A stretch of DNA of 63,605 nt, the filler included, from Basidioascus undulatus (taxonomy: Eukaryota): assembly GCA_000826855.1 (NCBI GenBank). It is 4 parts of 4 records of this genome, joined end to end, with 100 filler letters (N's around TTAATTAATTAA, not from the genome) between each part and the next. Parts side by side here need not be neighbours in the genome. Positions count along the whole stretch, not along the records: positions 1 to 31,777 come from JTLS01000100.1; 3 more parts are not named here. One strand, written 5' to 3'. A program made the position numbers and the translations under genes. Of this stretch, positions 1 through 55,083 are shown piece by piece (positions within the stretch are counted from its first letter, which is position 1; the number at the start of each line of letters is the position of its first letter). Below the pieces are notes generated by a model that had not been told where the DNA came from, did not search any database, and worked only from the letters and a program-made list of their open reading frames with translations.

Positions 1-2024
1 AAAAAAAAAAAAAAAGCTTCAGTAACCTATCGTTGCGAGGGTACACGTCAGCAAGCGGAAAACAGACCTTCTTCCCCTCTGGCCGGCGCTGGTTCCGGCG
101 CAGCGTCTCCATGCACTGCCCAAGAACCATGAGCGACTTGTTGATGTTTCCCGCCTCGCGGAGGCGGTCGCCTGTACACCCCGCCGAACCTGATCAGCCT
201 TCACGCTGAGGATCGCGCTTGCCAAGCAAAGAGTCGAACGCACCAGTGTTGCCCGTGTTCTTCGTCCGCTCCGACCCCGCGAGGTCCACTATCGAAAGCC
301 GGGAAGTCGTGACGGAGTCGGGGTCCTGCAATCAGCCAAATTAGCGGGAGCGGGCGGGAGGCGAGACAGCGAAGGACACGAGGAGACAGACCTTGGGCGA
401 CCCGCCATGCACGCGCATTATGCGGATGTTGAAGATCGAGTGCGAGCGGGACGACTGGCGGTTCGCGAGCGTCGAGAAGACCTGACGGTTGTGCGTCCCG
501 AGCTCGAGGAGCGCGCGCGCTTCCTACACATCGCCCCACACCCACAACTCCTCAGCACCGGCCCTGCCAAATGACGAAGAGGGGCGGGAAACCAAGCCAA
601 CAACGCACCTCCGGCGAGTCGCACCTGACCTCCCTAAGTCCATCAACGTACTTGGCGTCGGCATCGCGGTCCGCGCGCAGGCTGAGCGCCTTGCGCTTGA
701 CGACGATCACCTTCTTGCTCCCCGCGCTGGCGGTGCTGCTAGTCGCGGACGACGCAGCGCTGAAGCCGCTGGAGGTGGAGCTGGAGGCGTTCATAGATGA
801 GGAGGAGGAGGTCGGGAGGGACTCGAGGAGGTCATAGATCTTCTCGTTATACACTTCCGCGTACGAGATCCAGACCGAGTACTTGTAGTTGCGATCGAGG
901 GGGATCGCTGTGGAGAGGCAGGGTGAACTAATCGCGCTGGGAAGGGGTAGCGGAGTTGGGAGGGCGCACAGGTCGACTCGGCCGGGGGGAACGGGGGAGG
1001 CGGGCCGCCCTGTAGGCGAGGGAGGTGTGAGTGTCCCTGGTTCAGGAAGGATTGAGTGTGAGAAGGGCGTACAGGGAAGACGTCCGCGAACGATTCGGTG
1101 TGGTGCGAGTTTGAGCGCGGGATGCCGAGGATGGTAGAGGACGTCTTTGTCGACTCGACGCCGCAGACCTTGCTCGGGCGGAACTGTCCACGCACTTCCT
1201 TCCTTCAGTCTCCGTCCCAGTCCCCGCCAACGGAACGCAGTGAGGTGCTCACCTCCGGCCCGGCCCTCAGCTCCCCAACGCTATTGAACACGACATCGAT
1301 CGCGCGGGGAATAACGCCCTCCTCGCCCCTCCCCTGTCCTCCCTGAATAGTATACGTCTTCCCCGAGCTCGTAACTCCATACGCAAAAAGAAGCGCATTC
1401 TGCCCCGCCTGGAGGACATCATACAGCAGCGGGAGGGTGGTCTGCTTGAAGAACTCCGACTGCGCCTGCGTCTGGCTCGCGGGCAAGGGGGAGGGGAAGG
1501 GGGAGAAGACGTGCGTGAACGCGTAGCGCTCGGACGTGAGCGCCTGGCTCTGGTGCGTGTGCGGGGCGGAGGAGAGCCGCGGGTGCGCGGCGTGCGCGGC
1601 TGAGGAGGGCTGCTTGAGCTCGATCTCCGTCGGCGAGAGCACGCTCAGGTAGGGCTTTTGCAGCGGCCGCTCGGGTGGGTTCCGCACGCGGAGGTAGGTC
1701 TGCGTTGGCCCGCCCACCCATCGTCAACACGACCTCGCCTTTCGATGTCCTACAGAATGAAAACATTTGAAAACGCACCTTGATCGGCTCCTTATCCGGC
1801 ACATACTGCGCGATGCTAAGCTTGCCTCGCACAGGCGCGGGCGTCGACCCGCCCTCTTGGACGACGACCCGCCGCTTGCTGGGCGTCGCGGTGGTGGCGG
1901 GGTTGCCGGCGAGGGATGAGACGCGGTTCCACATGGGCGGGGCGGGCGAGGGTGCGGGTGCGGCGGCGGCGGCGGCGGCGGCGGCGGCTTTCGAGCGCGT
2001 TGTGCGGGGCGGAGGAGGGGGCAT
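1..2024 (-). CDS. Kinesin motor protein (kinesin-6-like), spliced, 3' part runs off the window
   Basis: ATG at 2024 (MPPPPPRTTRSK-polyAla). Exons give TYLRVR, P-loop AYGVTSSGKTYT, EVYNEKIYDLL, switch I NRQSSRSHSIF (~430-470), switch II SIVDLAGSERT (~262-297) and LREAGNINKSLMVLG (~120-165). Subfamily is inferred from the long insertion inside the motor domain. Confidence 0.92.
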
Positions 2025-2472
2025 TCAACGATAGTGCGGGAATGGAGGGGGGAGAAAGAGAGAGGGAGATGAGGAGGCAGGGAAGAGGAGGCGCGGGGGA
2101 GGGACACGCGCTGGGGCACGTGACTGAAATACAGCCACAATGCAACGCCCGACCAAGTCAAGTGGCCCGCGTACCAGAGACGATTATTGCAGAGGATTGT
2201 TTTGAGAAGCAAAGGCTTTATAACGAATGTGATGGGGACCAGAGATAAGCGCACTCAGAGCGCATGATGAGCAATCCGACACGGTGGCTGTCGACGGCTG
2301 CTGCAGAGCAGTGAGACTGCGGGTGTACTTTTTCGACTTACAGTCGACGAGCATAGATAACAGTGCGCATGCCGGTCAAGGGCAGGCATACGTGCACAGC
2401 ACAGCACAACAGTCTATACTTGCAACACGCCCCACCGCACATCATCAACCCTCTATGTTCCCCTCTCCCCGC

Positions 2473-2880
2473 CTACTCCTCAAACTCCTTCCCCACCAGC
2501 AGCCTGTACGCCTCCCTATACTTCTCCCCCGTCCTGCGCACCACATCCTCCGGGAGCTCCGGCCCGACCTCCGCGTTCTTGTCAAATCCGACGCTGGTCA
2601 GATAGTCGCGCACAAACTGCTTATCGTAGCTCGCTTGGCCCTGGCCGATGGCATAGCCTTCCGCGGGCCAGAAGCGGGACGAGTCGGGCGTGAGGAGCTC
2701 GTCGATGAGGATGAGGCGCGGGGTGCCGGGCGTGGGGTTGTGCGGGGACGAGGGCGAGAGGATCCCGAACTCGAGCTTCGTGTCCGCGATAATTATACCG
2801 CGCGAGGCGGCGTACTCAGCCGCGCGCGTGTAGATGGACAGGGCGGCCGCGCGGATCTGCTGCGAGAGCGGGGCGGGGTC
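2473..2880 (-). CDS. ADE1: SAICAR synthetase C-terminal half only, in frame with the upstream GT31 gene
   Basis: RGIIIADTKLEFG, LIDELLTPDSSRFW, SYDKQFVRDYL and KYREAYRLL match PurC/Ade1 C-terminal motifs. Stop at 2473-2475. No N-terminal GKVRD/DRISA part was found in the window. Confidence 0.9.
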   Translation of the reverse strand, partial: DPAPLSQQIRAAALSIYTRAAEYAASRGIIIADTKLEFGILSPSSPHNPTPGTPRLILIDELLTPDSSRFWPAEGYAIGQGQASYDKQFVRDYLTSVGFDKNAEVGPELPEDVVRRTGEKYREAYRLLVGKEFEE

Positions 2881-4944
2881 GAGCGTCGAGCGCCAGTTGT
2901 GCACGCCCCAGTCGGCGAGGAGCGCGATCGCCGTCTCGTAGAACCACTCGTGCCGCTTCAAGAAGTGCACCACGACGGTCCCGCCCCACTGCACAAGATC
3001 CACAACCATCACGTCAGCCAACTATAAAGTTCCACTCCACCAGGTGCTCGCACTCACCGGACGGTTCTCCATCCGCTCCGCGAGGCTCTCGCGCGGGCTG
3101 CCCTTGGCGCCCTGCGCCTTCTCGTCGTCGCGCAGGCTCTCCTCGGCGCCCTCGACGAGCGCAGCGACCTCGTCGCGGAGGGACATGCCTTCCCGCGGGG
3201 GCACGTACTTGCGCCCCCACTTGGTGACGGTCGAGTACGCCTGCATGCGCTCCTCGCCGCCGCGGCGGAGGGACTCGTGCCGGGACAGGCCGAGGTCGCC
3301 TTCGGTGCGGACGCGGCTGACTTCGGAGGGGAAGAGGAAGCCGTGCGAGTAGACCTGCGCATGGCAACTTCAGCGGCGAGGTTTCTTGTCGCGACCGGAA
3401 CGAAAACGGGAAAGGACGCACAGTTGGCGACTTGGGGTGGTTGTAGATCCAACACCGCTCGCTAGCCCACTTGACCTCGTCGGCGCGGGGATGATGCCGC
3501 ATCCACTTGGCCGTCTGCTTGTCCTCGGCGCCGCGCGTGAGCTGCCGGACGACGGGCGAGCCCGCGACATAGTCGACCAGGTCGCGGCTGAGCGCGTAAG
3601 CCTCGCCAGCCATGAAGCGGTTCTTGACGAGATCTGCGAAGCGGTCATTCCAAGTAAGCTCAGATTATCTGCCGCCGAGATAAGGAGAACCCACAGCCCC
3701 AGTACGTCATTTCCTTCGGTTGGACGCGAAGGTGACGCTCGAGCTCTCCGAGCATGATGAACGAGTCGTCGTCCGCCTTGACGACAAAGTCCGGTTTCCG
3801 CCAGGTCTTCTTGTCCGCAGGCGACGCCGGATCGGGAACGGACGCATTCTCGGCTGCCCACGAGAAATACGCGTAGGTCTTGCCGCCATTCATGTTCTCC
3901 GTCGTGTTGAGGACGATCAAGTCGCCGAAAGCTGTGCAGCAGCCCGCCTGTCAACCAAAACCTGCCACAAGCGTGGGTCAAGTGAAGCCACGCACCTTCT
4001 TGCTCGAGCATGATCTCGCGCGCGAGCTTCCGGCTCGGCTGGCCTAGCACAAACCGGACCTGGACGTTGCGCCCGTCTGTAGGCCCAGCACCGCGAGCCC
4101 ACGTCTCGCGGATGACCATCCGGCGCTCGACGGCCCTGTCCACGGACATGATGCCGACGAGGACGGCGAGCGGTGGGAGCGAGTCGGCGAGCTCGTGGGG
4201 GAACGGCGCGGCGTCTTGACAGTATGTTCGCCATGGTAGGGGTGTTTTATCGGGATTAAGAATGTAGATGATGAGTTGGACAACGGAGAAGATGAAGAGG
4301 CTGAGCGGAGAGGGAAGAAGTTGAGCATCATCGAGAAGCGAGCGAGTGGACAGCAAGGTTGGGTGGGGAGGGAAGACGAAGACGCACCCGACTAGAACGG
4401 CCGACAAAATGATTGTCCACGCCTGCGTAGGAACGTACGGCCTAGTCGTGAACCAGTCCCACGCCCGGCCCATTCGTCTTCGCATCCTCGCGACCGGTCC
4501 CCTCCGCTTCTTCCTCGCCAGCAAGCTCCCCCCCTCCCCAGCTGCCAGTCCGCTCAGGCTGCCGCTGGACGAGCTCGAGCTCAGCCTCCCTCGCGGCTCG
4601 GGCGCGCCGCCGTTCGAGAACCATTTTCGCTTCCGGCGCGAGGGCGAGCCTGGCCTTGACGCGACGGGGGTCACCTGACCGGAGCGGAAGTAGAGAGCGT
4701 CCGTGACGGAGGACTCTATGGAGGTTTGACGGGACATCGCCGGAGAGGCGACGCCCGACGCTGAGGCGCAGCCGGGCGGGGGCGCGTAGAGGTGTGCGTG
4801 GTTGTAGGAGGAGTGGGAGCGGACGGAGAGGGAGGGGGAGGAGCGCGGGCGGAGGAGGTGGCCCGACTCGGTGTCTGGCTCGGAGGACGACGAGTCGTCT
4901 GCCGAAGAGAGCTCGAGCGCCGGGCGTAGTGGACGTGACGGCAT
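2881..4944 (-). CDS. GT31-family (beta-1,3-galactosyltransferase-like) type II membrane glycosyltransferase, spliced; no stop of its own
   Basis: ATG at 4944; TM segment (TIILSAVLVG..LFIFSVVQLIIYIL); ERRMVIRETW, VRFVLG, ENMNGGKT, DFVVKADDDSF (DxD motif), YWG, FMAGEAYALS, GAEDKQTAKWM, terminal GGTVVVHFLKRHEWFYETAIALL. Introns include 4301-4387 and ~2989-3057. Confidence 0.88.
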
Positions 4945-7900
4945 GGCAGGAATAGGAAACTAGGGAGGAGATGCGCAGCGCGACGGGGATGCCGCAGGAT
5001 AGCAGGATGCTGGCTGGCGCGACGCGGAGAGGAGCGGAGAGCGCGTCGCTGCGGACGGTGATACCACGTTAGCTTGACAGACTGCAGGGCGATGTATGCA
5101 GCAAATAAAGAACTTGCCTGCGGTTGATTCCGCCAATCGGCGACTGGGTCTTCGAGGAGAGCGCGAGGGCAAGGGATCGACGGCGTGAACTGGAGGGTGG
5201 CTCAGAAAGGTCAGTCGTCTGACGCTGCCGCACAGTGCCACAGGCTCATGCGCTCAGGCTCGTCGCCGAGCGAGAGGGTGGTGAAAGTCGAGGGTGCATG
5301 GACCTTCTACTAGTGTAGATCTGCTCCCTGTTCGCATGGCATCATGCCGCAGCGCCAGACCCCCTGCTAGCCCGCCATCCCTTGGCTGCGCAACTGGTGC
5401 AGCAGCAACAACACCACCTTTATCCACCGCCTTCGTCGTACCACTGCCCAGTCCGGACCGAGCGCAGCGTCGAGTACTCACAAGGCGCCCAAGCGAGGAA
5501 CGAAAGTCGGCCAAAGCCCCTCAGGAGGCCAGTCTGGCGCGCCTACGAGTGGCGAAGACGGGGCCGGGCGCGTGCGGGTGGACGCGCGCGGTGGACCTGG
5601 AGGGCGAGGTGATATCAGGATCGCTGTCAGCGGTGGCGAGGACGGCGTCGAGAATGGAGATTTACAGGAGTGCAAGGAGTGGAAGGCAGTGGATCTGCCG
5701 AGACACCGCAAGGAAGCGGACAGGCCTGTGGCCGAAGCTGGGGCCCCTCCGCAGCAAGTGCAGTAATAGACGCCGCTCCTTGTGTGTGGCCCTGCTCGCG
5801 CAACAGTCCTCCTTCCCATGCCAACAGCAGGCAAATGCTCACGTGAATTGAGACTGTGAATTATACTCTATACTGTCAGAGAAACAAATGAGTGTGAGTG
5901 ATCGTATCGAAGAGGAACGACGACGGCGGGAAGCGGTATCCACGCGAGCGTGTATGGAAGGCGCCATCCATATTCCGCTTGCAGTCGAAAGTCCGGGCCG
6001 GATTGGTTGCTGAGAATACCCTCTGCCTGCAGCATTTTCAATGTTCCCTCTCATATTGGGATACCTCAACAATCCCAAAATACGCATTGTTGTAGCCATT
6101 GCCCGGCCAGACCAGGGGAAGTTGAGCAGCCACGCGGCCTTGTTGAGTCCAGCGATCTATTTTCCATGATGTGCGGAGTGCTCTGCTGAGTGGAGGCAAT
6201 GCCATGTCGTTGTGCTGAATGTTTTCAGCTGAATAGTAGGCGTGTATTGATTATGCGAAGTGCATGTAAGCATATTTGCAAACTTCAGGTTTTCCTGGAT
6301 CTCCGGAGGTTGCAAGTCAGAGTAAGAGTCACCGCCCCAGTGGGCCTCGCTTCGAACTACATGAAGGTATGCAGTCCAAATCAGCAGACTTTCAGCCACT
6401 AGATACTTGAGAATTGCATAAACCAAGTTGAGATACCAACGTTCAACGTAGTGCTCGCTTCCCATAGAGACAAGAATGAAAATATGAGCGGGTGGCACAA
6501 GTGCTTTTTCGTCTTCCTTTCCTCTCGAATGCAATCACTGTGATGAGCCGCAAGACAAACAACTGCGTATTCTTGTTTCTGATGCACTGTGCAGTGCAAG
6601 GTGAGGCATGGCAACTGAGTCGGAGGTGAAAGGCAGTGCTGTTTGTTTCCATCAAGCTTGAAGAGTGGCTCGATGCCGAAACGGCAAATGCTACTCTACA
6701 CTGAAAGAATTTTGTTTGTGAGCAATGAACTCTCATCTCGGGGCATAGTATAGCGACACAGGTGAGGGTACGAGGCAACGAGGGCATAGGGCATAAATAC
6801 ATGCGAGACTTACGGGGACGACATGGAGACATTTTCCTCGTGGTATTAAAGAGGTACGAGGACTACTCATGGTCAGATAAATGTATGTCAAATATTCCTC
6901 TATCAGGCGAAACTGTGAGATATGGGGGGATCCAGAGGCAAGTCGGACGGGATGCAAATGCACGGGCAGTGCGCAGTCCACAGAGGAGGGTGCAGCCCAA
7001 GTGCTAAGCGCGTGACCAGGACGAGAGAGCAGCGAGGGAAAATCTACGAGATCACTGGCGACGAAGTCCCGCATTGTGAACTCGGGCTTAAAGAGAGAAG
7101 GAAGAGTGCGAGCGGGCGGGGGGAGAGGAGAGCGAGTTGAGTGCCTTGTCCATGTTCAGCAGACGCGCTGTCCTGTTCTTGTCGTGCCTTTGTATTTCTG
7201 AGGACCAGACGTTACCTATCTGATCTGTTTCCTCCCGATCCCGTCCCTTCTGCGCTCATGTTTTCACAACAAAGGGGGTTGGTTCGGAGCGAAGATCAAC
7301 TGAGTGGCCACGGAAACGTCCCCGTTTAAGAAAGATCACCTGTATACCCATGAAGGCTGAATAAAAGAACTCACAGTGGGGGGGATCTCCACACAGTGTA
7401 CTTGGGCTGCCTTGGCTGCAGTGAGCGGACAGGCCAAGCTGAGAGTGAGGTGCGTGATGACTGACTGGTAAGTCTCTTGACACGTGTTTCTGATGTCAAA
7501 CTCAGCTTTGTTAAATTTGAAGTTGTTCATATCGTCTTGTCCAAGAAGCTTCAGTCCTGTACACCTGAAGAAGTGAACGTATTTGGTCTACGTGCATCAT
7601 ACCACATCGGCACGTCCGCAATTACTCCCAGCCCACGCCCGTTTGCTCACGGAGGGAGGGAGCTGTCTTCAAATTCAGGCTCAGTAGATTTCAAGGCCTT
7701 GCTACCGACGACGCTTGCGTTCAAGTAAATTTTACTCGAGGTGTCACACATTTTTCTTATGCCACATTTAAAAGAAGCACCACCAGTGTAATAATAGCGC
7801 CGAAGTGAATCTCGAGTACAACAGGCGCAATGTCGCAGATTTCGAAGCCCGTCGTATCACGGCATTGAACACCTTTGGGCGCAGCCGCTCTTCCGGTTCC

Positions 7901-31777: not shown

Positions 31778-31877
31778 NNNNNNNNNNNNNNNNNNNNNNN
31801 NNNNNNNNNNNNNNNNNNNNNTTAATTAATTAANNNNNNNNNNNNNNNNNNNNNNNNNNNNNNNNNNNNNNNNNNNN
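31778..31877. other. Artificial contig spacer N44-TTAATTAATTAA-N44
   Basis: 100-nt linker with stops in all six frames; identical linkers at 43387 and 54984. Confidence 0.98.
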
Positions 31878-43386: not shown

Positions 43387-43486
43387 NNNNNNNNNNNNNN
43401 NNNNNNNNNNNNNNNNNNNNNNNNNNNNNNTTAATTAATTAANNNNNNNNNNNNNNNNNNNNNNNNNNNNNNNNNNNNNNNNNNNN
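43387..43486. other. Artificial contig spacer
   Basis: N44-TTAATTAATTAA-N44. Confidence 0.98.
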
Positions 43487-43487
43487 C

Positions 43488-43560
43488 GGGCATTTGGTGT
43501 AGGGGCTATCACATCTCATTCGCATTGAGGGGGTCCCCGGTTCAATTCCGGGAATGTCCA
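43488..43560 (+). tRNA. tRNA-Ala (anticodon CGC), intronless
   Basis: Acceptor stem GGGCATT/AATGTCC with G3:U70 and discriminator A; anticodon arm TCTCA-TTCGCAT-TGAGG; T-arm CCCGG-TTCAATT-CCGGG; oligo-T Pol III terminator just downstream. Confidence 0.95.
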
Positions 43561-54983: not shown

Positions 54984-55083
54984 NNNNNNNNNNNNNNNNN
55001 NNNNNNNNNNNNNNNNNNNNNNNNNNNTTAATTAATTAANNNNNNNNNNNNNNNNNNNNNNNNNNNNNNNNNNNNNNNNNNNN
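54984..55083. other. Artificial contig spacer
   Basis: N44-TTAATTAATTAA-N44. Confidence 0.98.

Follow-up and report, generated by a model that had tools for sequence, protein, structure and literature searches.

The SAICAR synthetase domain is described from Saccharomyces cerevisiae Ade1 (PDB 1a48), from PurC and, in animals, from PAICS, a natural purine-pathway fusion of AIR carboxylase and SAICAR synthetase. Among fungal members of glycosyltransferase family 31 (GT31; PF01762), P0242 and P0243 share the C-terminal motif GGTVVVH..W..ETA.A, and the three orthologues considered here end in variable tails of 37-103 residues that contain no Ade1 domain. A further point of reference is the chimeric contig of draft assemblies, in which a short exact repeat brings together two unrelated loci and independent contigs from the same strain diverge, to both sides, at that very repeat. 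Here, positions 2473-4944 of a 63,605-nucleotide stretch of Basidioascus undulatus DNA (assembly GCA_000826855.1; the whole stretch is referred to below as the window) were considered, where a GT31 gene runs in frame into the C-terminal part of ADE1. This GT31-Ade1 fusion is very probably not a real feature but an in-frame assembly chimera. It resembles other chimeric contigs in the manner described above and in that both sides run on into sequence of the gene to which they belong, and differs from the usual case in that the join happens to preserve the reading frame between two coding exons and thereby mimics a gene fusion. What is shared with PAICS is the attachment of a SAICAR synthetase domain to a second enzyme; PAICS-type fusions, however, unite a whole SAICAR synthetase with a pathway partner, whereas in the window half a domain stands behind an unrelated Golgi-type transferase, at a join that in all probability does not exist in the organism.

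As read from the window, the apparent gene starts with the ATG at 4944 on the minus strand and comprises six exons separated by five short GT..AG introns. From the acceptor at 2990-2989, the last GT31 exon reads WGGTVVVHFLKRHEWFYETAIALL, continues as ADWGVHNWRSTLDPAPLSQQ and then passes into SAICAR synthetase. The original prediction had described this exon as open from GT31 into Ade1 with no intervening stop; indeed, the minus-strand frame 3021..2473 is open over 182 aa, the first stop being that at 2473-2475. The GT31 copy is cut 17 residues past its conserved motif, where Ade1 takes over. The position proposed for the last intron (~3057-2989) was likewise correct, as a spliced contig described below lacks exactly 2989-3057.

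Four public runs were found to share words of positions 2300-3400, and the Logan contigs of these runs were compared with the window over positions 2050-7000. Run X1 represents sample S1 (study P1), runs X2 and X3 represent sample S2 (study P2), and run X4 is a soil metagenome; no run listed as RNA was among the four. The share of sampled words of 2300-3400 present was 98% for X1, 98% for X2, 77% for X3 and 9% for X4. The last of these contained short relatives of the Ade1 part only (e.g., 2637-2869, with 6 differences over 233 positions, ~97% identity), which are uninformative on the join; given these contigs, a relative of Basidioascus undulatus may be present in soil, the share of words being small.

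In X1, X2 and X3, contigs on the Ade1 side match the window up to position 2887 and then diverge (X1 record 1, 954 nt; X2 record 6, 7,696 nt, including 6,768 nt past 2887; X3 record 12, 991 nt, including 510 nt past that position). Contigs on the GT31 side of the same three runs match the window from 2866 upward and diverge before 2866 (X1 record 3, 29,455 nt, with 1,675 nt past 2866; X2 record 8, 69,895 nt, with at least 23,236 nt to either side; X3 record 13, 2,210 nt, with 303 nt past 2866). The two sets of contigs overlap solely over the 22 bases of 2866-2887, and a contig bridging these positions was found in none of the three runs. Clipping at the junction had been named at the outset as the sign of an assembly chimera, and the contig equivalent of such clipping was seen in all three runs, with both flanks diverging at 2866/2887. 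The loose-end consensus before 2866 is identical in X1, X2 and X3; behind 2887, a consensus is given for X3, and the same divergence is evident for X1 and X2 from their contig coordinates.

The depth of the contigs was next considered. When summed over bins 2714-2879 and 2880-3045, depth was 17.6 and 18.7 in X1, 49.9 and 45.9 in X2, and 77.9 and 37.6 in X3. Because these values equal those of the listed contigs, no unlisted bridging contig is present. The depth of the Ade1 part relative to that of the GT31 side (14 vs. 18.1 in X1; 40.2 vs. 44 in X2) is like that of a single copy. An intact ADE1 gene accompanied by a fused extra copy is thus ruled out, since double depth would be needed and the Ade1 part is not doubled. 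The same values bear on the idea of a fused allele that coexists with the intact genes, be it as a minority variant or in one nucleus of a heterokaryon, and that was dropped by the contig assembler. Contigs do lose rare variants; however, a second path of appreciable depth would branch the graph and break the contigs at the join, and the contigs instead continue for kilobases to both sides, at single-copy-like depth. An allele of this kind is highly improbable.

The sequences into which the contigs diverge belong to the respective genes. On the Ade1 side, the 30 loose letters past 2887 (minus strand, Ade1 frame) read DENISIEQY followed by two codon letters that are completed by base 2887. Among PurC proteins, P0003, P0009 and P0015 all contain a conserved HDENIS, and in the ADE1 reads, as in P0009, DENIS stands 29 residues from the LY/IY of the helix that follows. 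Because DENIS is thus found in frame past 2887 and at the spacing seen in P0009, the ADE1 reading frame extends upstream past the join with sequence of its own. On the GT31 side, the 30 loose letters before 2866 leave the GT31 frame open for 10 codons (DSSPELEPHP), a continuation that fits the variable tails of GT31 orthologues. With up to three mismatches allowed, neither 30-letter continuation was found in the 63.6-kb window.

These observations can be set against another of the three options originally offered for the fusion, namely, a deletion between tandem GT31 and ADE1 genes by which the tail of GT31 was lost along with the spacer and the 5′ half of ADE1 (the others being a new chimeric protein and a misassembly, the option supported here). 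That both parts lie on the same strand and in the same frame agrees with such a deletion. The contigs, which diverge for kilobases, contradict it for samples S1 and S2, since the two genes are not neighbors there: no GT31 sequence appears in the 6,768 nt upstream of Ade1 and no Ade1 sequence in the 1,675 nt (X1) or at least 23 kb (X2) past GT31. Moreover, no second piece of the Ade1 or GT31 contigs falls on 2050-7000, the depth accounting is closed, and the continuations are absent from the window. A tandem deletion is, as such, barely conceivable.

A real translocation, mediated by the 22 bases of microhomology and private to the culture that was assembled, would leave a GT31-Ade1C gene in that culture and the parental form in X1-X3. 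The clean, in-frame join and the capacity of 22 bases of microhomology to mediate recombination speak for this explanation, as does the fact that assembly of the window from X1 or X2 is unproven, these runs being described as what "may be" its source. Against it stands the close agreement between contigs and window. Over the 4,135 nt of 2866-7000, the GT31-side contigs of X1 and X2 show 0 differences from the window, and the Ade1 side shows 1 difference in 838 nt; because of these low counts, X1 and X2 are of the same strain as the window. Further arguments against are that the unfused form is found in both samples, collected 11 years apart, and that the record is a draft concatenate. In addition, loss of the 5′ half of ADE1 would bring about an adenine requirement, as follows from the known purine pathway, unless the gene were restored by the reciprocal product. 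A private translocation is, therefore, quite unlikely. Equally, it is very unlikely that the assembled isolate carries its supposed outcome, i.e., a newborn chimeric gene of a single laboratory lineage in which the substrate-binding C-terminal half of Ade1 would be placed behind the lumenal end of GT31, with ADE1 being disrupted.

Transcript-like sequences also keep the two genes apart. Although run X3 is labeled "DNA?", its GT31 contig lacks introns 2989-3057, 3353-3419, 3634-3694, 3932-3995 and 4301-4387 (each CT..AC on the plus strand). As all five GT31 introns are missing from this contig, X3 behaves as RNA-derived; X1 and X2, which are DNA runs, show none of its splice joints. The GT31 gene model is thereby confirmed. 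In X3, GT31 (2,210 nt) and Ade1 (991 nt) are found in separate transcript contigs, each of which leaves the window sequence at the join, and no junction-spanning transcript was found among the contigs of this RNA-like run. X3 also contains further joints upstream of the GT31 5′ untranslated region (5049-5664, minus strand), namely, the alternatives 5189>5304 and 5189>5482, as well as 5594>5664, which suggest either that the leader region is spliced or that another transcript lies upstream in the same orientation.

Read on the minus strand, the 22-base word at 2866-2887 gives TLDPAPL in either gene, and because the two genes share this reading frame, the join looks clean and in frame. The word occurs nowhere else in the window. 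According to a random-composition model, 27-113 pairs of shared 22-mers are expected in 17-35 Mb; the window alone has 8, far above the model. Shared 22-mers in a genome of such size are thus expected rather than rare. In the proposed course of events, the ADE1 locus would have supplied positions up to 2887 (a kinesin-like gene and then the 3′ half of ADE1), an unrelated six-exon GT31 locus would have supplied those from 2866 on, and the two loci would have been joined by the assembler at a 22-base word native to both genes. We infer that the assembler used this shared word as an overlap. Since most assemblers require overlaps of more than 22 bases, the error would more likely have arisen when contigs were merged or gaps closed.

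Explanations of a more local nature were also considered. The 7-bp tandem repeat noted in the original prediction (TCGAGCG x2) is present at 2879-2892. As a deletion scar, however, it was rejected, since the GT31 contig contains the repeat in full, as native GT31 sequence within the 2866-7000 match that shows 0 differences. The CAG that follows CCGCTCTCG had been proposed to be an old acceptor, a suggestion that did not hold: residues TLDPAPLSQQ are native Ade1, with LSQQ aligning to yeast LSRR, and the RNA-like Ade1 contig is unspliced through this CAG. Finally, a local rearrangement within the window was rejected, as the continuations of the two genes do not occur there and self-comparison revealed no repeats.

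As regards the Ade1 part, residues 53-145 of the 182-aa frame match Pfam SAICAR_synt (PF01259) over profile positions 143-223 of 233 (E 2.3e-25; score, 90.2 bits; cut-off, 20 bits). Residues 186-304 of the 306 of yeast Ade1 (1a48) align to exon residues 40-169 with one 9-residue insertion and without stops or frameshifts, bearing out the description of this part as lesion-free; the aligned stretch (2476-2871) is 53-61% identical to bacterial PurC proteins. Unlike these enzymes, the window holds only the C-terminal ~40% of the protein. When the window was searched by tblastn with five full-length PurC proteins, the sole matches were at 2482-2916 (all others had E > 0.5), such that the N-terminal, ATP-binding half, reported as missing at the outset, is indeed absent from the whole window. 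That half was very probably lost from the window by the misjoin and not from the organism. When a protein collection was searched with the last exon, no near-identical protein was among the 240 matches listed; these are all PurC, with at most 61% identity, and PF01259 is the only domain among them, in searches that reach few fungal proteins. The top match, P0002, is a 301-aa ENA protein in which the C-terminal half of PurC occurs twice in tandem behind an unrelated N-terminus and which is itself probably an artefact of assembly or gene calling.

For the GT31 part, exon pieces were scanned one by one against PF01762 (Galactosyl_T). Exons 2 and 3 gave collinear matches (Table 1), both of which score below the cut-off of 23 bits. 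A search with the exon 2 protein returned six proteins, including P0242 (990 aa, Ustilago nuda; 53% identity), P0243 (740 aa, Plicaturopsis crispa, named "glycosyltransferase family 31 protein"; 40% identity over exon 2) and a third GT31 orthologue, P0246 (702 aa). Against PF01762, P0242 (36.3 bits) and P0243 (31.5 bits) pass the cut-off, and P0246 scores 22.2 bits. The GT31 identity given in the original prediction is upheld, if more weakly, by the collinear exon matches below the cut-off together with the orthologues P0242 and P0243 above it. Exon 3 contains KADDDSF, a DxD-type motif to which KADDDAY in P0242 and KVDDDSF in P0243 are equivalent; the DxD motif is a metal-binding motif typical of GT-A transferases. 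The motif of the last exon is identical at 17 of 23 positions to residues 865-887 of P0242 and at 15 of 23 to residues 681-703 of P0243. ETAIALL, described earlier as the usual end of this subfamily, is where the conserved region ends but not where the protein does: the three orthologues have unrelated tails of 103 (P0242), 37 (P0243) and ~40 residues (P0246) after the motif. SAICAR_synt (PF01259) was found in none of P0242, P0243 and P0246, whereas the window copy runs into Ade1.

The nature of the record is in keeping with an assembly error. Three identical spacers, each consisting of N x44, TTAATTAATTAA and N x44, are found at 31778-31877, 43387-43486 and 54984-55083. TTAATTAATTAA is presumably a six-frame-stop linker of the kind used for stringing contigs into a pseudomolecule. 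Given the three artificial linkers, the record is a draft concatenate of contigs, which fits contig-level errors. At least four contigs are thus strung together in the window, and adjacency across the linkers is meaningless. The two inner pieces between linkers measure 11,509 and 11,497 bases, and this similarity in size suggests that the contigs were sorted by length.

Several points weigh against regarding the join as an artefact. The runs were compared as contigs and not as raw reads; contigs show presence rather than absence, and the filter applied may omit records. X1 and X2 are flagged as possible sources of the assembly. Each continuation was read over 30 letters, such that the case for a complete ADE1 gene rests on the existence of the 510 nt in X3 record 12. 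The one Ade1-side difference is unplaced, and the shared word would match at 21 of 22 positions were it to lie inside 2866-2887. Lastly, the search for the displaced 5′ half of ADE1 and the GT31 tail covered the window and not the whole assembly. With these points taken into account, an in-frame assembly chimera is still considered the very probable explanation, and the features of the region are listed accordingly in Table 1.

Table 1. Features assigned to the ADE1 and GT31 loci on either side of the join, in order of window position.
Feature	Positions	Strand	Basis and remarks
ADE1 3′ untranslated region	2407..2472	minus	Extends to the limit of the RNA-like contig (X3 record 12, covering 2407-2887)
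3′ part of ADE1 coding sequence	2473..2887	minus	~137 codons plus stop (2473-2475); true fragment, very probably severed from its 5′ half by the join
22-base word common to both true loci	2866..2887		ADE1/GT31 switch point; ends of contig matches in X1, X2 and X3
GT31 exon 6, part in window	2866..2988	minus	Motif GGTVVVHFLKRHEWFYETAIAL and start of variable tail; X3 record 13 extends 303 nt beyond 2866
GT31 exon 5	3058..3352	minus	X3 joints 2988>3058 and 3352>3420; GT..AG on minus strand
GT31 exon 4	3420..3633	minus	X3 joints 3352>3420 and 3633>3695
GT31 exon 3	3695..3931	minus	Contig joints; KADDDSF; PF01762 profile 76-103, 14.4 bits
GT31 exon 2	3996..4300	minus	Second half of membrane span and start of catalytic domain; contig joints; PF01762 profile 1-44, 15.6 bits
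GT31 exon 1, coding part	4388..4944	minus	ATG at 4944; Ser/Pro-rich cytoplasmic N-terminus; X3 record 13 covers 4388-5048
GT31 5′ untranslated region	4945..5048	minus	X3 record 13; upstream GC..AG intron 5049-5117, joint 5048>5118 (plus-strand ends CT..GC)

Examination of the flanking sequence revealed a kinesin-motor gene at 1205-1934 (minus strand), downstream of the Ade1 fragment, with a likely ATG at 1934 and a PF00225 match (E 8.6e-18) over 1205-1723. Just upstream of this gene lies a (GCC)n run of ~9 units (~1961-1988); in both X1 and X2, the contig on the Ade1 side stops at about this run, 90-91 nt below 2050. Elsewhere in the window, a tRNA-Ala gene (anticodon CGC) is found at 43488-43560 (plus strand), one base past a linker and, as such, at the very start of a contig.

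A real fusion would yield a chimeric protein of a new and odd kind and would imply that the fungus requires purines. As an assembly chimera, the join instead matters for quality control only: gene models drawn across 2473-4944 will encode a spurious GT31-Ade1 fusion, ADE1 will seem incomplete or absent in assembly GCA_000826855.1, and the apparent synteny between the first 2.9 kb of the window and the remainder is false. More generally, where a join coincides with a short word common to both sides, a junction that is in frame and free of lesions cannot be taken as evidence that a fusion is real. In the organism, ADE1 would continue in frame upstream of the join and give rise to its own transcript, while GT31 would carry its own C-terminal tail and likewise be transcribed on its own. 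There is, accordingly, no new biology here, with neither a chimeric protein nor purine auxotrophy being implied for Basidioascus undulatus.

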